Made by a program: the position numbers and the translations under genes. DNA of 16,518 nt. Origin: a virus. Lineage: Duplodnaviria; Heunggongvirae; Uroviricota; Caudoviricetes. Below, one piece after another: positions 50 through 7,343 of the stretch. The stretch is from the IMG/VR virus record IMGVR_UViG_2526164609_000012, one strand, 5' to 3'. Every line of letters starts with the position of its first letter. The first letter of the stretch is position 1. The notes under the pieces are model-generated. The model did no database searches. It was given only the letters and a program-made list of their open reading frames with translations, and had not been told where the DNA came from.

Positions 50-583
50 ATGAACGCAAAAATCAGATACGGCCTGTCGGCTGCCGTTCTGGCGCTGATT
101 GCCGCTGGTGCGCCTGCGCCTGACATTCTCGACCAGTTTCTGGATGAAAAGGAAGGTAACCACACCACGGCATACCGTGATGGCGCGGGTATCTGGACCA
201 TCTGCCGCGGTGCCATCCTGGTGGATGGCAAACCTGTCGTTCCGGGCATGAAGTTGTCGAAGGAAAAATGCGACCAGGTTAACGCCATTGAACGTGATAA
301 GGCGCTGGCATGGGTGGAGAAAAACATCAAAGTGCCGCTGACCGAACCCCAGAAATCGGGGATCGCGTCATTCTGTCCGTACAACATTGGCCCCGGTAAG
401 TGTTTCAGCTCAACGTTTTACCGGAAACTGAACGCCGGAGACCGGAAAGGTGCATGTGCTGAAATTCGTCGCTGGATATATGACGGCGGCAGGGACTGTC
501 GGAACCGCTCAAATAACTGTTACGGGCAGGTATCGCGGCGTGACCAGGAGAGCGCGCTGGCGTGCTGGGGTATCGACAGGTAG
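50..583 (+). CDS. phage endolysin, lysozyme family, with N-terminal signal-anchor-release (SAR)-like hydrophobic segment
   Basis: 177-aa ORF, ATG at 50. N-terminal hydrophobic stretch (GLSAAVLALIAAGAPAP) followed by EGNHTTAYRDGAGIWTICRG, which resembles the catalytic Glu/Asp/Thr block of P21/T4-type phage lysozymes. Lies directly upstream of Rz/Rz1. Confidence 0.85.
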   Translation: MNAKIRYGLSAAVLALIAAGAPAPDILDQFLDEKEGNHTTAYRDGAGIWTICRGAILVDGKPVVPGMKLSKEKCDQVNAIERDKALAWVEKNIKVPLTEPQKSGIASFCPYNIGPGKCFSSTFYRKLNAGDRKGACAEIRRWIYDGGRDCRNRSNNCYGQVSRRDQESALACWGIDR

Positions 584-803: not shown

Positions 804-917
804 ATGAAAGGCATTGAAGTGGAGACGCCAGCCAGTCTGGATTTAACAAGAGCGGCAGCTTTTGCCATTCGTATTGTGGCAATTGCTGTTCTGGTCTGGG
901 CAATCCGTTGGTGGTGA
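804..917 (+). CDS. small hydrophobic ORF (37 aa) between endolysin and Rz, function unknown
   Basis: ATG at 804 with GAGG 8 nt upstream; translation MKGIEVETPASLDLTRAAAFAIRIVAIAVLVWAIRWW has one predicted transmembrane segment. TGA at 915-917 lies 1 nt before the Rz ATG at 919. Too short for the ORF track; found by manual translation. Confidence 0.3.
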   Translation: MKGIEVETPASLDLTRAAAFAIRIVAIAVLVWAIRWW

Positions 918-918
918 T

Positions 919-1386
919 ATGAACCGTGTTCTGTGCGTGGTCATCATTGCCCTGCTGGTGGCCTGTGGTGCGCTTAGTCTGGGGCTGAATCATTACCGTG
1001 TTCACGCCATCATCTACAAAGAGCAGCGCGATAAAAAAGCCAGTGAGCTGGAGCTGGCGAACGCGACAATTACTGATATGCAGATACGCCAGCGTGATGT
1101 CGCTGCACTTGATGCCAGATACTCGAGGGAATTAGCCGATGCGAGAGCTGAAAATGAAACTCTGCGTGCTGATGTTGCCGCTGGTCGTAAGCGCCTGCGG
1201 ATCAACGCCACCTGCTCCGGTACCGTGCGTGAAGCCACCGGCACCTCCGGCGTGGATAATGCAACCGGCCCCCGACTGGCAGACACCGCTGAACGGGATT
1301 ATTTCATCCTCAGAGAACGGTTGATGACAATGCAGAAGCAGCTGGAAGGGGCACAGGACTATATCCGCACTCAGTGCCTGAACTAA
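919..1386 (+). CDS. Rz: Rz-like i-spanin (inner-membrane spanin subunit)
   Basis: Internal ATG at 919 of ORF 862-1386. N-terminal TM segment then coiled-coil sequence (HYRVHAIIYKEQRDKKASELELANATITDMQIRQRDVAALDARYSRELADA...ADTAERDYFILRERLMTMQKQLEG) closely resembling lambda Rz; contains an embedded +1-frame lipoprotein ORF. Confidence 0.85.
   Translation: MNRVLCVVIIALLVACGALSLGLNHYRVHAIIYKEQRDKKASELELANATITDMQIRQRDVAALDARYSRELADARAENETLRADVAAGRKRLRINATCSGTVREATGTSGVDNATGPRLADTAERDYFILRERLMTMQKQLEGAQDYIRTQCLN
1139..1324 (+). CDS. Rz1: Rz1-like o-spanin (outer-membrane lipoprotein) embedded in Rz
   Basis: 61-aa ORF wholly inside Rz in another frame: MRELKMKLCVLMLPLVVSACGSTPPAPVPCVKPPAPPAWIMQPAPDWQTPLNGIISSSENG. 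Lipobox-like VSAC and a proline-rich mature part as in lambda Rz1; AGGGA 8 nt upstream. Start could instead be the ATG at 1154. Confidence 0.8.
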   Translation: MRELKMKLCVLMLPLVVSACGSTPPAPVPCVKPPAPPAWIMQPAPDWQTPLNGIISSSENG

Positions 1387-1724
1387 GTTTTGCTGATGCG
1401 CCGTATCGTCGCTGTATTCCCTCATTAACAGAGACCGCAGCCCGACAGGGAGACTCCTCTGCGCGAGTGTGCGGGGATAATCAAAAACGATACACACCGG
1501 GGTTTACCGCGTTAACGGAGCGCGGCGTTGTCCCCTCATAGTCGCCAGTCCGGTGCGATGGTGGAAGAAACAGGACGATGTGTTACCTCGCAAGCCCTGT
1601 TATGTCATGTGTCTGATTTGTGATTTAAGTCGGATAATTGTCGTTGCCATTAAGCAGAGGATTGATGACCGACAGGGCGGCATTGTTAGAATAAGACTTA
1701 TTTTTATCTGTGCGGGGAATGAAA

Positions 1725-2051
1725 ATGAAAAGAAATCTTCCGTTAATTATTTTGTTGTCTTCTCTGGTTATGGGCTGTACGCAACATAAAACAGATATGC
1801 CCCGACAGTTGGTTAAGGCATTACCACAATATCCGGCCTATGCAGCGGCAAATTATATAAAGGGACGGGTTGATGTGAGGTTTGATATTGGTGCTGATGG
1901 TACTGTCACCCGAATTGAGTTTATTCGTTCAGAGCCGCACCATCTGTTTGATGAGCAGGTTGTAAAGGCGATGGCAAAATGGCGATTTGAGAAGGACAGG
2001 CCGTGTAAAGGCGTGAAGAAAACGTTTATCTTTAGTCCTTCCGCACCCTGA
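1725..2051 (+). CDS. moron lipoprotein with TonB C-terminal-domain-like fold
   Basis: ATG at 1725 with GGGGA 6 nt upstream (ORF track starts at GTG 1710). Signal peptide MKRNLPLIILLSSLVMGC with lipobox-like VMGC. C-terminal part (PAYAAANYIKGRVDVRFDIGADGTVTRIEFIRSEPHHLFDEQVVKAMAKWRFEKDRP) aligns by eye with the E. coli TonB C-terminal domain signature (G.V.V.FD...DG.V...P...F...V..AM..WR.E). AT-richer than flanking phage genes. Confidence 0.7.
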   Translation: MKRNLPLIILLSSLVMGCTQHKTDMPRQLVKALPQYPAYAAANYIKGRVDVRFDIGADGTVTRIEFIRSEPHHLFDEQVVKAMAKWRFEKDRPCKGVKKTFIFSPSAP

Positions 2052-2182
2052 TTATTTCATCAGAAATTAATTATCACTCTGTTGTTATTCTGTACATCCC
2101 GGCAGGGTAAGTCTTGTTCCGTCGGATATGAAGATGAAATATTGTTGGAGGACAGTGGGTACCTGCTCCTGTAACCGAACGT

Positions 2183-2383
2183 TCATTTCTCGTTATTTGT
2201 CATGCTGGCCGGGCGCAGATGCGTTGCATCTGTTGCCAGCCTTCTCCTGCAGGCTTCAATAACCCACGCTGAAAAGTTACCGGACCCTTTATGCTCAAGG
2301 GCGATGTTGATCTGTTCAATCATGTGATTGGGGAAACGGATATTGCGGGTTGTGGTTCTGCGGGTACGGTTTTTCGATGACAT
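2183..2383 (-). CDS. small putative ribbon-helix-helix DNA-binding protein
   Basis: Minus-strand ORF trimmed to internal ATG at 2383, which has AAAGGAAAT upstream: MSSKNRTRRTTTRNIRFPNHMIEQINIALEHKGSGNFSAWVIEACRRRLATD... Basic N-terminus, a short beta-like segment (RNIRFP) and two helices fit an RHH pattern. Divergent from the HNH gene. I think it resembles small enterobacterial prophage proteins but cannot confirm the family. Confidence 0.5.
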   Translation of the reverse strand: MSSKNRTRRTTTRNIRFPNHMIEQINIALEHKGSGNFSAWVIEACRRRLATDATHLRPASMTNNEK

Positions 2384-2424
2384 ATTTATTTCCTTTACTG
2401 ATTGCCATATGACGGGGATTTTAC

Positions 2425-2790
2425 ATGGCTGAGCTTCGTACACTCCAGAGCAGAATCAAAACACTGAATACCCGACGGGTGAATATTCTGAAGGGTGAAC
2501 AGCGTCGTGTCAGTGGCAGTGCACGTGTTTCCCTCAAGCGTCATATCTGGCTCAGGGACGCCGGGCAGTGCCGTCTCTGTGGTCGTGTGGTTGACCTCTG
2601 TGACAGTGAACTCGATCACCGAATTGCACTTCAGTTCGGTGGTGGTAATGAGGAGACGAATCTCTGGACGCTCTGTACCGAATGCCATCGACAAAAGTCT
2701 GCTCGTGAAGCGGCGAGTGATATGCCGGACCCGACGCTGCCGGAGGTGTCCGGAGGTAGTGGCAGAGAGGACGACATCATCGGACTGTAA
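2425..2790 (+). CDS. HNH endonuclease, packaging-associated
   Basis: 121-aa ORF with Cys pairs and HNH motif (CRLCGRVVDLCDSELDHRIALQFGG...NLWTLCTECHRQKS); GGGGA RBS. Sits immediately upstream of a cos-like repeat region and the terminase small subunit, the usual place for terminase-associated HNH proteins in HK97-like phages. Confidence 0.85.
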   Translation: MAELRTLQSRIKTLNTRRVNILKGEQRRVSGSARVSLKRHIWLRDAGQCRLCGRVVDLCDSELDHRIALQFGGGNEETNLWTLCTECHRQKSAREAASDMPDPTLPEVSGGSGREDDIIGL

Positions 2791-2879
2791 CCCGACCCCG
2801 GGGGGTATCATCCGGCGTAAAAAACGATCGCTTTGGACACCGCGCCCCCTCTCACGCAGAGAAAAAATTCCCGTTTCAG

Positions 2880-3006
2880 GCCAGTTAACATGTTAACTGG
2901 CTGTCCGGGCATTTTTGCGGTTTTTATCTTTATTATTCAGTTTGTTGTGCGAAAAAAAATGTTAACTGGCTTTTTCAGAAAATGTTAACCAGGCAGCAGT
3001 TAACAT
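2880..3006. repeat. cluster of GTTAAC-centred motifs including a perfect 22-bp palindrome; candidate cos / terminase recognition region
   Basis: Perfect palindrome GCCAGTTAACATGTTAACTGGC at 2880-2901; ATGTTAACTGGC again at 2959-2970; ATGTTAAC at 2982-2989 and its inverse GTTAACAT at 2999-3006, separated by CAGGCAGCA. An A/T tract (2911-2958) lies between. All within the non-coding gap between HNH and the terminase small subunit. Confidence 0.45.
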
Positions 3007-3080
3007 TTGCGGCATGAGACGCCGGGAAAAATGGGCTGAACCATACCCGGCTGAGTGCGTTCTGGACCCGGGAGGAGGCT

Positions 3081-3641
3081 GTGCTGACAACGCAAAAACG
3101 AAAATTTGCGCTGGCGCTCATGTCCGGGAAAAACAAAACAGCGTCAGCCATTGCCGCCGGTTATTCGGCGAAGACCGCCAGGGTTAAAGGCTCGCAGCTG
3201 GCAAAAGATCCGGAGGTGCTCGCGTTTATAGCCCGTAAACAGTGCGAAACGGTGGAGGTGGATGAGGTTCCTGTTTACCGGCAGAAAAAATCAGAGCAGG
3301 AGGATAAACCCCGTCGCCGTGAGGCGGCTGCAATACCACAGCCGGACGAAAACAATCCGGAGATGCCACCGCCCGCGGTGATGTCTCATGGTATTGAATA
3401 TATGGAGGATGGTCTTCCCGATCCGGTGAAAGCTATGGGGCAGATCCTGGTGGAAAACCTCAGCATTGATCCGAAACTGGCACTGGATGCGGCCTGGCGA
3501 CTGGCGCAGTTCACACACCATAAAAAAGGCGATGCCGGTAAAAAATCGGCAAAAGGTGATGCCGCGAAAAAAGCGGCTAACCGTTTTGCGGTACCACCAC
3601 CACGACTGGTGGTGAATAACGATAATGAGGGCAACGGATGA
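3081..3641 (+). CDS. terminase small subunit
   Basis: 186-aa ORF, GTG start at 3081 preceded by GGAGGAGG. N-terminal HTH-like segment (KRKFALALMSGKNKTASAIAAGYSAKTARVKGSQLAKDPEVLAFI) typical of small terminase subunits; stop overlaps the large-subunit start (ATGA at 3638-3641). Confidence 0.8.
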   Translation: MLTTQKRKFALALMSGKNKTASAIAAGYSAKTARVKGSQLAKDPEVLAFIARKQCETVEVDEVPVYRQKKSEQEDKPRRREAAAIPQPDENNPEMPPPAVMSHGIEYMEDGLPDPVKAMGQILVENLSIDPKLALDAAWRLAQFTHHKKGDAGKKSAKGDAAKKAANRFAVPPPRLVVNNDNEGNG

Positions 3642-5299
3642 TACCTGTATGGAGCACGGCCTGCCCGGACTGGGCAGAGCGCCTGAAAAAGGGGCTGTCG
3701 ATTATTCCGGCTCCGATTTATCCGGACCAGGCCGCACATGCCCTGGCGATTTTTAAACAACTGCGGATTGTGGATGCACCGGGTAGCCCGACGTTCGGGG
3801 AGTCCTGTGCACAGTGGGTGTTTGACCTGGTGGCGGCTCTGTTTGGCTCCTACGATGCGCAGACCGGTGTCCGCCATATCAAGGAAGTGTTCATTCTGAT
3901 ACCCAAAAAAAACAGCAAGTCCACACTGGCCGCCGGGATCATGATGACGGCGCTGTTACTGAACTGGCGGCAGGCGGCGGGTTACACGATTCTGGCCCCG
4001 ACTGTGGAGGTGGCAGCCAACGCCTTCAATCCTGCCAGGGATATGGTACGACGGGACGATGATCTGGATGACCTCTGTCAGGTGCAGACACATATCCGGA
4101 CCATCACCCACCGGGTGACGGACACCACCCTGAAGGTGGTGGCAGCCGATCCGAATACGGTGTCCGGTATCAAGTCCGTGGGGACGCTGATTGATGAGTT
4201 GTGGCTGTTTGGCAAGCAGTACAAGGCGGAGGACATGTTACGTGAAGCCATCGGCGGGCTTGCCTCCCGCCCGGAAGGGTTTGTGGTGTATACGACCACC
4301 CAGTCGAATGAACCGCCCGCCGGGGTGTTCAGACAAAAACTGCAGTACGCCCGGGATGTGCGCGACGGCAAAATTAATGATCCGCACTTTCTGCCGGTGA
4401 TATTTGAACACCCTCCTGAAATGGTGGAAAGCGGGGCTCACCTGCTGATGGAAAACCTCGCCATGGTCATTCCGAATCTCGGCTATTCAGTGGATGAGGC
4501 CTTTCTGTACCGGGAGTACCGTAAAGCCCGGGAAGCCGGTGAAGAGACATTCCGGGGGTTCATGTCAAAACACGCCAATGTGGAAATTGGTCTTGCCCTG
4601 CGCTCTGACCGCTGGGCGGGGGCTGATTTCTGGGAAGAGCAGGGCCGTTGTATCAACCTGGACGATATCCTGCGTCGTGTTGATGTGGTGACGGTGGGGA
4701 TTGACGGCGGAGGGCTGGATGATCTGCTGGGGATGTATGTGATTGGGCGTGACCGGGAGACCCGCGAATGGCTGGGCTGGGGCCATGCCTGGGCGCATGA
4801 AACCGCGGTGGTCCGACGGAAGAGCGAGGCGTCCCGGTTTCATGATCTTGTTGCCTGTGGAGATATGACCATTGTCCGGCGTGTCGGGGATGACACGGCG
4901 GAAGTGGCGGAATATGTGCGTCGCATTCATGAGGCTGAGTTACTGGACCATATCGGTATTGACCCGTCAGGGGTGGGGCAGATTCTGGATTCACTGGCGG
5001 AAGCCGGGATCCCCGACGGAATTGTGGTGGGGATAAGCCAGGGCTGGAAACTGGGCGGGGCCATTAAAACCACCGAGCGCAAACTGGCTGAAGGGGTGCT
5101 GGTGCATGGTGACCAGCCCCTGATGGCCTGGTGTGTCGGCAATGCCCGGGTGGAGCCTAAAGGTAACGCCATTCTTATCACCAAACAGGCCAGTAGACGG
5201 GGAAAAATTGACCCGCTGATGGCGCTGTTCAATGCGGTCTCCCTGATGTCCCTTAACCCGGAACCGAAAAAGAAAGAATATGCGGTTTTTTTCATATAA
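3638..5299 (+). CDS. terminase large subunit
   Basis: 553-aa ORF. ATPase P-loop-like segment (FILIPKKNSKSTLAAGIMMTALLL) and a C-terminal nuclease-like region (VTVGIDGGGLDDLLGMYVIGRD); size and position after the small subunit fit. Confidence 0.9.
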   Translation: MIPVWSTACPDWAERLKKGLSIIPAPIYPDQAAHALAIFKQLRIVDAPGSPTFGESCAQWVFDLVAALFGSYDAQTGVRHIKEVFILIPKKNSKSTLAAGIMMTALLLNWRQAAGYTILAPTVEVAANAFNPARDMVRRDDDLDDLCQVQTHIRTITHRVTDTTLKVVAADPNTVSGIKSVGTLIDELWLFGKQYKAEDMLREAIGGLASRPEGFVVYTTTQSNEPPAGVFRQKLQYARDVRDGKINDPHFLPVIFEHPPEMVESGAHLLMENLAMVIPNLGYSVDEAFLYREYRKAREAGEETFRGFMSKHANVEIGLALRSDRWAGADFWEEQGRCINLDDILRRVDVVTVGIDGGGLDDLLGMYVIGRDRETREWLGWGHAWAHETAVVRRKSEASRFHDLVACGDMTIVRRVGDDTAEVAEYVRRIHEAELLDHIGIDPSGVGQILDSLAEAGIPDGIVVGISQGWKLGGAIKTTERKLAEGVLVHGDQPLMAWCVGNARVEPKGNAILITKQASRRGKIDPLMALFNAVSLMSLNPEPKKKEYAVFFI

Positions 5300-5324
5300 C
5301 CCTGTTCACACTGTAACCATCACG

Positions 5325-5350
5325 AACCGCTCCGGCGGTTTTTTTATTTT
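5325..5350 (+). terminator. terminator/attenuator-like hairpin after the terminase large subunit
   Basis: Stem AACCGC (5325-5330), loop TCCG, stem GCGGTT (5335-5340), then TTTTTATTTT; followed at once by the AGGAGG RBS of the protease. A near-identical hairpin recurs at 13659-13680. Confidence 0.4.
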
Positions 5351-5362
5351 CAGGAGGCTGAT

Positions 5363-5937
5363 GTGACTCTTAAACGGGCCTGTTCCCTGCTGACGGTGAA
5401 ATCCTTCAGTGAGGATGAACGGGTGATCACCGGGATTGCGTCAACGCCTTCTCCGGATCGGGATGGTGACATCCTGGAGCCGGAGGGCGCGGAGTTTGGC
5501 AGTGCGATCCCGTTTCTCTGGCAGCATGACCATTCCCGCCCGGTGGGGCAGTGTACGGTGCGCCGGGTCAGCGAAGGGCTGGAAATCACGGCAACACTGG
5601 TGAAGCCCGTACCGGATATGCCGTCGCAACTGGCTGCCCGGCTGGATGAGGTCTGGGCGGCCATTAAGACCGGGCTGGTCAGGGGCTGTCCGTGGGCTTC
5701 CGTCCCCATGAATACACCTTTCTGGACGGAGGCGGACTGCATTTTCTGCGCTGGGAACTGATGGAGGTGTCTGCCGTCACCGTGCCCGCGAATGCGGAAT
5801 GCACCATCCGGACCATTAAATCTTACGACAGCCCGTTTTCTGCCGCGTCCGGCAACCGGAAACCGGTGGTGAAAATCGCATCTTCTGCCGGCGCTGCGGC
5901 ACAGTCAACAACCGTTTTTCATAAGGAAAAGACCATA
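5363..5937 (+). pseudogene. HK97-family prohead protease, frameshifted and in frame with the capsid gene
   Basis: GTG start at 5363 with AGGAGG RBS. N-terminal part (ITGIASTPSPDRDGDILEPEGAEFGSAIPFLWQHDHSRPVGQ) matches prohead protease, but this frame stops at 5759-5761. The conserved GLSVGF...EVSAVTVPANAECTI part is in another frame, open from 5668. One extra G in the GGGG run at 5682-5685 would join the two. The second frame has no stop before the capsid gene. Confidence 0.7.
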
Positions 5938-7299
5938 ATGAATATTGGCGAACAGATTAAAAGTTTTGAAAACAAGCGTGTAGCGCTGGCAGCCTCCCTT
6001 GAGGAGGTCATGACCAAAGCCGCAGAGGAAGGGCGCACGCTGGATGTGGAGGAGGAAGAGCATTACGACAACACCGCAGCGGAAATCCGTCAGGTGGATG
6101 CGCACCTGAAGCGCCTGCGTGAACTGGAAGCCGGTAAGGCCGCCACGGCGCAGCCGGTGAAACAGGCCGGTAACGGGAATGTGGCCGCGGTGGCTTCTGC
6201 GCCGGTGATCCGTGTGGAGCAGAAACTGGATAAGGGGATTGGCTTCGCCCGCTTTGCCAAATCGCTGGCTGCGGCTAAAGGCGTCCGATCTGAAGCCCTG
6301 GAAGTGGCCCGTCGTCAGTATCCGGATGACAGTCGTCTGCATCATGTCCTGAAATCGGCAGTGGGCGCGGGGACCACCACGGATCCGCAGTGGGCAGGCA
6401 GCCTGTCTGAATATCAGGAATACGCACAGGACTTTATTGATTACCTGCGTCCGCAGACCATTATCGGGCGATTTGGTCAGGGCGGGATCCCTGCACTTCG
6501 TCAGGTGCCGTTCAATATCCGTGTGCACGCCCAGGTGTCCGGCGGTGCTGCCGGCTGGGTGGGTGAGGGTAAGGCAAAACCCCTGACGAAGTTTGATTTT
6601 GAATCCATCACCTTCAGTCATGCGAAGGTGTCGGCCATTGCGGTACTGACGGAAGAGCTGATCCGTTTTTCCAGTCCGGCAGCTGATGCGCTGGTCCGTA
6701 ATGCGCTGGCAGAAGCGGTGGTGGCGCGTCTGGACACAGACTTTGTGGACCCGAAAAAAGCCGCAGTGGCAGATGTCTCCCCGGCGTCCATCACCCATGA
6801 TGTGAAGGGCAAGGCATCAACCGGTAACCCGGATGCGGATGCAGAGGCGGCGTTTGGACAGTTTGTGGCAGCAAACCTGCAGCCCACCGGTGCGGTCTGG
6901 CTGATGTCCAGCACCAATGCCCTGGCGCTGTCCATGCGTAAAAATACGCTGGGTCAGAAGGAATACCCGGACATGACCCTGCTGGGGGGGACCTTCCAGG
7001 GGCTGCCGGTGATTGTCTCCCAGTACGTGGGTGACCAGCTGGTGCTGGTGAATGCCCCGGATATTTATCTGGCGGATGACGGCGGCGTGGCAGTGGATAT
7101 GTCCCGCGAGGCATCACTGGAAATGCAGTCTGAGCCGACCGGCGACAGTACCACGCCGTCGCCGGTGGAGCTGGTTTCCATGTTCCAGACAGGCAGTGTG
7201 GCCATCCGTGCGGAGCGCTGGATCAACTGGCGTCGTCGCCGTACCGCGGCGGTGGCGGTGATCACCGGTGTGAACTACGGCAGTGCGTCCGGCGGCTGA
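5938..7299 (+). CDS. major capsid protein, HK97 fold, with N-terminal coiled-coil delta/scaffold-like domain
   Basis: ATG at 5938 with AAGGA about 10 nt upstream. N-terminus (MNIGEQIKSFENKRVALAASLEEVMTKAAEEGRTLDVEEEEHYDNTAAEIRQVDAHLKRLRELEAGK) is coiled-coil-like as in HK97 delta domains; the rest has capsid-like size and composition. Same frame as the upstream protease C-terminus with no intervening stop. Confidence 0.85.
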   Translation: MNIGEQIKSFENKRVALAASLEEVMTKAAEEGRTLDVEEEEHYDNTAAEIRQVDAHLKRLRELEAGKAATAQPVKQAGNGNVAAVASAPVIRVEQKLDKGIGFARFAKSLAAAKGVRSEALEVARRQYPDDSRLHHVLKSAVGAGTTTDPQWAGSLSEYQEYAQDFIDYLRPQTIIGRFGQGGIPALRQVPFNIRVHAQVSGGAAGWVGEGKAKPLTKFDFESITFSHAKVSAIAVLTEELIRFSSPAADALVRNALAEAVVARLDTDFVDPKKAAVADVSPASITHDVKGKASTGNPDADAEAAFGQFVAANLQPTGAVWLMSSTNALALSMRKNTLGQKEYPDMTLLGGTFQGLPVIVSQYVGDQLVLVNAPDIYLADDGGVAVDMSREASLEMQSEPTGDSTTPSPVELVSMFQTGSVAIRAERWINWRRRRTAAVAVITGVNYGSASGG

Positions 7300-7343
7300 G
7301 TCTGATAAGGAGGACGGGAGGCGAGCGCCTCCCGTAACAGGTT

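Follow-up and report, generated by a model that had tools for sequence, protein, structure and literature searches.

What is the function of the 290 bp of DNA that separate an HNH endonuclease gene from the small terminase gene in a lambdoid E. coli prophage? The window, by which we mean the whole stretch of 16,518 nucleotides that was analysed (IMG/VR record IMGVR_UViG_2526164609_000012), is the late region of such a prophage, and RefSeq carries no annotated feature in this gap. An initial annotation, made from the sequence alone, noticed a palindrome and an array of GTTAAC motifs there and proposed that they were recognition sites for the small terminase or the HNH protein, or a cryptic cos of the prophage. 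We conclude that the array is probably the terminase-recognition part of a packaging site, a functional counterpart of lambda cosB, with the small terminase (TerS) as its presumed binding partner. Elements of this kind, a cos with terminase-binding repeats, are already well known. The features of the region are listed in Table 1.

Table 1. Genes and packaging-site features in the window. Distances with a plus sign are counted from the predicted cut; a slash marks the cut.
Feature	Position	Strand	Description
Endolysin	50-583		
Rz spanin	862-1386		
Protein with TonB_C domain	1710-2051		
HNH endonuclease gene	2425-2790	+	Pfam HNH PF01844, E 3.7e-8; PHROG 589 HNH endonuclease; last gene before cos
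Non-coding gap	2791-3080		290 bp
G-run	2800-2805	+	CCCCGGGGGG = 2796-2805; about 45 nt upstream of cut
cos core	2835-2869	+	GGACACCGCGCCCCCT/CTCACGCAGAGAAAAAATT; by homology to Lys8385Vzw ends
Proximal recognition site (putative)	2880-2901	.	22-bp palindrome, GTTAAC cores at +34/+42; invariant core 2883-2899
A/T-rich spacer	2910-2958	.	T5 tracts about 10 bp apart; conserved ATTCA(N5)GTTG at 2935-2947
Distal half-site C	2959-2970	-	ATGTTAAC(TGGC), +109 to +120
Distal half-site D	2982-2989	-	ATGTTAAC, +132 to +139; invariant
Distal half-site E	2999-3006	+	GTTAACAT, +149 to +156; inverted relative to D; invariant
terS, small terminase	3081-3641	+	GTG start, Shine-Dalgarno GGAGGAGG; N-terminal HTH, residues 1-56, SPP1/SF6 G1P type
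terL, large terminase	3638-5299	+	Pfam TerL_ATPase, TerL_nuclease
Protease-capsid fusion	5692-7299		
Portal	7511-8875		
Head-tail connector and completion genes	downstream of portal		

The region is 94-97% identical to that of many Stx1a, Stx2a and Stx2c converting prophages, including BP-4795, 2851, 1717 and YYZ-2008, and the 290-bp gap is found in 1277 of 5426 complete E. coli genomes, with up to seven copies per genome. Between the lysis genes and the HNH gene lies an ORF of 113 aa with a TonB C-terminal domain (Pfam E 1e-14); its homologue in phage Lys8385Vzw is labelled ‘protein TonB’, and its PHROG assignment is Rz-like spanin. The portal gene is interrupted by an in-frame stop at 8009-8011 (...NCGIT, stop, AVTV...), and both halves match Pfam Phage_portal, at profile positions 2-105 and 111-321; the split gene is either a pseudogene or a sequencing error. 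An IS1 transposase gene (12048-12551, plus strand) and an IS66-family transposase gene (14094-15695, minus strand) are found in the head-tail/tail region. Given the portal stop and the IS1 and IS66 insertions, the prophage is probably defective. The suggestion of a ‘cryptic cos’ holds for the presence of a cos region and fails for its degeneracy: the cos core is identical to that of functional relatives, and the defect lies elsewhere. Even a defective prophage could still be packaged via a co-resident helper with the same terminase type.

The position of the cut was taken from a relative. Stx1 phage Lys8385Vzw (MT225100), characterized from induced particles, was reported from PhageTerm analysis to have a cos with 3' cohesive ends and the terminal 10-mer CGCCCCCCCT (PMC7946995). 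It is approximately 95% identical to the window in the region holding cos. Its record ends in ...GGACACCGCCCCCCCT and starts with CTCACGCAGAGAAAAAATTCCCGTTTCAGGGCAGTTAACATGTTAACTGGC (CTCACGCAGAG...), while the window reads GGACACCGCGCCCCCT/CTCACGCAGAG... at the cut. From this alignment we predict a 10-nt 3' cohesive end at 2841-2850 (CGCGCCCCCT), with packaged DNA starting at 2851. The placement comes from a single PhageTerm mapping in a single relative: in a screen of a phage collection for records beginning at cos, Lys8385Vzw was the only source of end information, and nearly all the other records were Stx phage entries in prophage orientation. SfI/SfV-type phages have a different 10-mer, TGCCCGCCCC, and the Sakai prophage paper gives lambda-type cos only, for Sp4 and Sp14. 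The initial annotation had expected cos between the HNH gene and terS, and that is where it lies, in an HNH-associated packaging module making 3' overhangs. A cut within 2880-3006 itself was not borne out: the Lys8385Vzw ends map 30 bp upstream of the palindrome, which therefore spans +30 to +51 relative to the cut.

The repeats described in the initial annotation are real. The sequence GCCAGTTAACATGTTAACTGGC is a perfect 22-bp palindrome, its part ATGTTAACTGGC recurs at half-site C, ATGTTAAC and GTTAACAT form an inverted pair (half-sites D and E), and the palindrome is separated from the second site by an A/T tract (T5 at 2912-2916, T5 at 2921-2925 and A8 at 2952-2959). Altogether there are five half-sites between the cut and terS, at +34, +42, +109, +132 and +149 from the cut, and these are kept in relatives and in a satellite-like island described below. 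Measured from centre to centre, successive cores are 8, 69, 23 and 15 bp apart. Counting both strands, ATGTTAAC occurs five times in the 16.5-kb window, always within 2884-3006, against an expectation of 0.41, and none of 200 shuffles reached five copies. The shorter GTTAAC occurs nine times versus 2.1 expected, with five of the nine inside 121 bp. We do not regard an ORF at 2890-2988 (MLTGCPGIFAVF..., 32 aa) as a gene, since it lacks a Shine-Dalgarno sequence and is cut off by a stop after four codons in the satellite.

We compared approximately 130 cos regions from genomes and viral contigs, retrieved by TerS homologues and by the cos-core pattern. The core GGACACC.C.CCCCCT/CTCA.GC.CAGAAAAAAT and the upstream G-run are kept across Enterobacterales genera, with examples in Atlantibacter, Kluyvera, Kosakonia, Enterobacter, Serratia, Pantoea, Erwinia and Citrobacter and in Salmonella phage FSL SP-016. 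The loci fall mainly into two classes. In the short class (64 loci) terS starts at +40, with its start codon within GT[A/T]AAC-[A/G]TG-TTAAC, which in some members is a perfect GTTAACATGTTAAC. In the long class (55 loci, the window included) the palindrome occupies the positions of that element (+34/+42) and has lost its preceding Shine-Dalgarno sequence, and terS (GTG CTG ACA) starts 190 bp beyond it, past three more half-sites. Intermediates also exist: in L122, L023 and L024, terS starts with ATG CTT or CTG and has separate GTTAACC-type repeats upstream. L126 and L147 carry two AAAAGTTAAAG repeats.

The motif is deeply conserved. We compared the 70-mers that follow the cut in 59 distinct cos variants from many Enterobacterales genera: 48 have a GTWAAC-type pair at +34/+42, three have it at +33/+41 and another three at +35/+47. 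Among 42 distinct long-class sequences, all positions of the cos core but 2844 and 2855 are invariant, as are the runs 2883-2899, 2935-2939, 2954-2966, 2970-2975, 2980-2989, 2992-2996 and 2999-3007. The perfect 22-bp palindrome is a minority allele, with GCCA...TGGC ends in 12 of 60 related copies and GGCA...TGGC ends in 45; what is invariant is its core, AGTTAACATGTTAACTG. Likewise, the ATGTTAAC core of half-site C is invariant in the 42 variants and the satellite, and its four flanking bases vary (TGGC, AGGC, CGAC or TACC). In the short class, where the motif overlaps the coding sequence, codon 2 of terS is TTA and codon 3 ACA in all 37 distinct starts, while degenerate codons 4, 5, 7, 8, 10 and 16 vary freely and CTG is the codon of the other conserved leucine. 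When terS starts outside the motif, codon 2 is CTG or CTT (CTG in the long class) and the GTTAAC repeats are separate and upstream. The fixation of TTA-ACA fits selection on the DNA sequence GTTAAC, and constraints on translation initiation could contribute to it.

Which protein would read these sites? TerS has a sole Pfam match, Terminase_2 (PF03592, E 1.2e-8, residues 2-57). Its AlphaFold2 model shows four helices in the N-terminal domain (pLDDT 92-96), which a disordered linker joins to a helical C-terminal part. The best Foldseek match is 4zc3, the SF6 G1P DNA-binding domain (target TM-score 0.84, rmsd 1.6 Å, 30% identity), which together with 2cmp forms the top pair (rmsd 1.6-2.4 Å), followed by the PaP3 and NV1 small terminases. 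The HTH domain is the best-conserved portion of TerS across classes. Similarity of TerS to HK97 gp1 was not detectable, and TerL is a distant homologue of HK97 TerL (gp2), with 23% identity over 462 aa (E 1e-9). The label ‘HK97-like’ is therefore apt for TerL, the HNH gene and, judging from the relative, the end type of this module, and does not extend to TerS; since the latter has a G1P-type HTH unrelated to gp1, the recognition mechanism of HK97 is not simply transferable.

Two IMG/VR contigs, L127 and L130, serve as a control, although both represent a single lineage. Their cos core is the same and the C-terminal region of their TerS is homologous, whereas the TerS N-terminus is Arg/Gly-rich (MAGVKGKSGGARPNSGGARPGAGRKKK) and has no HTH. 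In these contigs there is no GTTAAC motif at +34, and GTGCTACA repeats are found upstream of the G-run instead. It looks as if the DNA-recognition domain was swapped along with its sites. That HTH and motif occur together would be correlative support for recognition by TerS.

A further comparison is provided by an approximately 11-kb integrative island (L146, also designated L206, in which it spans ~2014-13170; ~3355920-3367080 of NZ_CP145707) that adjoins tRNA-Pro between yejM and yejO. The island is flanked by a 16-bp direct repeat, TTTTAGTTATACGTTT, downstream of the tRNA; a tRNA-derived att repeat was sought for the island and not found. It encodes an integrase, an HTH protein, Ash and Icd-like proteins, a D5-type primase, SSB, PerC, a lambda-E-type capsid and a decoration protein, and within it we found no terminase genes. 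The phages with the same cos type encode a protease-capsid fusion of a family other than that of the island capsid. Approximately 150 bp from the right end of the island are the G-run, the cos core and all five half-sites, with near-identical spacing (one spacer is 1 bp longer) and with no terS or other gene downstream. Window and satellite are identical at 38 of 38 motif columns and at 57 of 91 other array columns (Fisher p = 7e-7). Half-site E is the final element that they have in common, and right past it (3007-3080) similarity falls to 29 of 74 positions. A helper-packaged satellite is expected to retain exactly what the terminase requires. The full cos-end segment (L146 10400-11100) was found in only six complete E. 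coli genomes.

Mimicry of cos by satellites is known for P4 with P2 and for E. coli PICIs with lambda and phi80 (PMC6739421). The island is like these in being a terminase-less integrative element with a helper-type cos copy at one end; it is unlike them in that it copies the recognition array as well as the cleavage site, and in having its own major capsid and decoration genes.

Three other elements of the region have possible roles. The G-run is at the same position in all relatives and in the satellite, and HK97 has a G9 run (L002 ~781-790) about as far from its right end; the run may represent a cosQ-like element, or a terminase or HNH contact common to otherwise dissimilar cos sites. In the PPompW prophages (LC567822, L207 1146-2604), an IS110-family element, ISEc20, is inserted exactly at the G-run, at about window position 2802; these prophages are without the lysis genes and the HNH gene, and their order is Q, tRNAs, ISEc20, cos array, terS. 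Right after the cut, at +11 to +17, is an invariant A6 tract within GCAGAGAAAAAATT (2856-2869, +6 to +19). In HK97 the A-tract bound by TerS is at +15 to +29 (PMC11331095), and by analogy the A6 tract could be where TerS actually binds here, an additional terminase contact or a pause signal. Finally, ATTCAGTTTGTTG in the A/T-rich spacer (2935-2947) has two mismatches to the IHF consensus WATCAANNNNTTR. Such matches occur at chance level (94 found versus 94 expected), 2935-2939 is invariant, and the positions that vary in the satellite coincide with N positions of the consensus. We regard this segment as a possible bend or IHF site, and the suggestion as a weak one.

We weighed recognition by TerS against four other readings of the repeats. 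In one, they are non-functional fossils of the terS 5' end (ATG TTA AC, for Met-Leu-Thr), left behind when the start region was duplicated and a new start arose 190 bp downstream. In favour of this reading, the motif ATGTTAAC is the terS start itself in most relatives, and the Shine-Dalgarno sequence upstream of the palindrome is lost in the window. Moreover, half-site D with its flank (2990-2999) reads ATGTTAACCAGGCAGCAG in the window and ATGTTAACAGGGCAGAGG in the satellite, where the short-class terS start reads ATGTTAACAGGGCAGAAG, so that 15 and 17 of 18 positions, respectively, match the first six terS codons. Fossils should decay, however, and the 38 motif columns are invariant in 42 sequences and in a satellite that differs at 34 of the 91 other columns. 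The upstream GTWAAC half-site, which is non-coding in the short class, is conserved there too. We therefore consider the fossil reading improbable as an account of the present array. Its historical component is a different matter: judging from these alignments, the array probably arose by duplication of a start-codon/recognition element, which is compatible with a present function, and such an origin is probably part of the best explanation.

The palindrome might instead be an expression element, that is, a terS operator or RNA hairpin, a site of TerS autoregulation, or a site for a host or phage regulator. It does straddle the terS start codon in the short class, and an RNA copy of the 22-mer forms a hairpin of 10 bp. 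The satellite, however, retains the full array with neither terS nor any other gene behind it, and in the window 190 bp separate the palindrome from the real terS start. The fold has a z-score of just -2.1, which is accounted for by the palindromes. Neither a terminator nor a convincing promoter was predicted in the region; the lone promoter-like match is weak, on the minus strand and built from the motifs themselves. An expression element is about as improbable as the fossil reading, although autoregulation could exist alongside cos recognition in the short class.

A still less likely reading is that the motifs serve as recognition sites for the neighbouring HNH endonuclease and not for TerS. 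This is suggested by the HNH gene immediately upstream and by the stimulation of terminase cos cleavage by HK97 gp74, an HNH protein, as Kala et al. 2014 is cited in PMC11331095. Against this, L127 and L130 lack the motif despite the same cos core, and what differs in them is the N-terminal domain of TerS, the protein compared here; the PPompW prophages, which may be defective, keep the array without an HNH gene. HK97 gp74, moreover, is not known to be sequence-specific. Of the two binding partners named in the initial annotation, TerS stands as the best explanation and the HNH protein has gained nothing in its favour.

Nicking sites such as lambda cosN typically show palindromic symmetry, but it is extremely unlikely that the palindrome is itself the cos cleavage site, since the Lys8385Vzw ends lie 30 bp upstream in a C-rich 10-mer, and since in the short class a cut there would part terS from its ribosome-binding site in linear virion DNA.

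Recognition by TerS therefore remains our preferred reading. We take the array to be functional because of its position between the cut and terS, its non-random copies, its deep conservation, its retention in the satellite, and the co-occurrence of HTH and motif. The mechanism that we propose is as follows. Staggered nicks about 30 bp upstream of the array, at 2841-2850, would give the 10-nt 3' overhang. The HTH domains of oligomeric TerS would recognise the GTTAAC cores, and the proximal pair at +34/+42 would be the ancestral, universally conserved site, which would place TerL over the cut with help from the HNH protein. In the long lineage of E. coli, duplication or displacement of the ancestral terS start, with which the proximal site overlapped, would have left three further half-sites (+109, +132 and +149) across an A/T-rich, probably bent spacer. 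The resulting multi-site array could wrap around the terminase ring and add distal contacts, comparable to R3-I1-R2-R1 of lambda, and packaging would then proceed rightwards through terS. In this scheme we infer the binding of TerS, the bending, any role of IHF and the role of the distal sites.

A more ambitious version, which we offer as a doubtful but possible extension, is that TerS reads a GTTAAC palindrome which in most members is its own start codon plus codons 2-3. The phage genome would then be recognised, and terS autoregulated, through one and the same element; the E. coli lineage would have uncoupled these roles by duplication to five sites, and a terminase-less satellite would have copied the array to pirate packaging.

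How does this site compare to well-studied ones? It resembles lambda cosB (R3-I1-R2-R1, with gpNu1 sites and an IHF site) in having several short repeats of mixed orientation downstream of the nicking site and ahead of the small-terminase gene, an A/T-rich and perhaps bent segment that parts proximal from distal repeats, and a presumed role in anchoring terminase for nicking approximately 30-50 bp away. It differs in the overhang, which is 10 nt and 3' as reported for the relative versus 12 nt and 5' in lambda; in TerS, which is of G1P type (Pfam Terminase_2) rather than Nu1; in the association of the system with an HNH gene; and in the repeat core, which here is the 6-bp palindrome GTTAAC, accompanied by a candidate rather than an established IHF site.

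With HK97 cos it shares an HNH gene before cos and terS/terL after it, a distantly homologous TerL, a 10-nt 3' overhang (predicted here from the relative Lys8385Vzw), a G-run some 40-50 nt ahead of the cut and a recognition site a few turns downstream. In contrast, the TerS sequences are unrelated and the cos regions have no sequence similarity. Setting the two cos regions side by side, as the initial annotation had proposed, revealed a common layout (G-run, about 40 nt, C-rich 10-mer) without a common motif. In HK97 the TerS ring is threaded by one A-tract site of 15 bp (PMC11331095), whereas here there are a palindrome and three distal half-sites.

The N-terminal HTH fold of TerS is that of SPP1/SF6 G1P and of the small terminase of the PaP3 TerS-cos system. 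The boxes that G1P recognises are short, repeated several times and set in intrinsically bent DNA. SPP1, however, packages by a headful (pac) mechanism with pacL and pacR boxes, while the packaging here is cos-type with defined ends (in the relative); in addition, the motif sequence differs and the sites are all to the same side of the cut. One earlier publication gives the cos end of this phage group. In the library of papers searched, the GTTAAC motif strings GTTAACATGTTAAC and ATGTTAACTGGC had no occurrence, and the matches for 10-mers were unrelated papers.

The system would provide a tractable model for an HTH-type small terminase in an HNH-dependent cos system with 3' overhangs, and the overlap of the motif with the terS start codon in most relatives, together with a satellite that copies the entire array, adds slightly to its interest. 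The packaging region belongs to many Stx1, Stx2a and Stx2c converting prophages and is widespread yet unannotated in E. coli. Knowledge of the cut and of the likely motif would allow the ends of phage genomes to be defined in these assemblies, as well as predictions of the defective prophages and satellites that a co-resident helper can still package. Such helper packaging is relevant to the spread of Shiga toxin and effector genes in O157-type prophage pools (PMC2669165).
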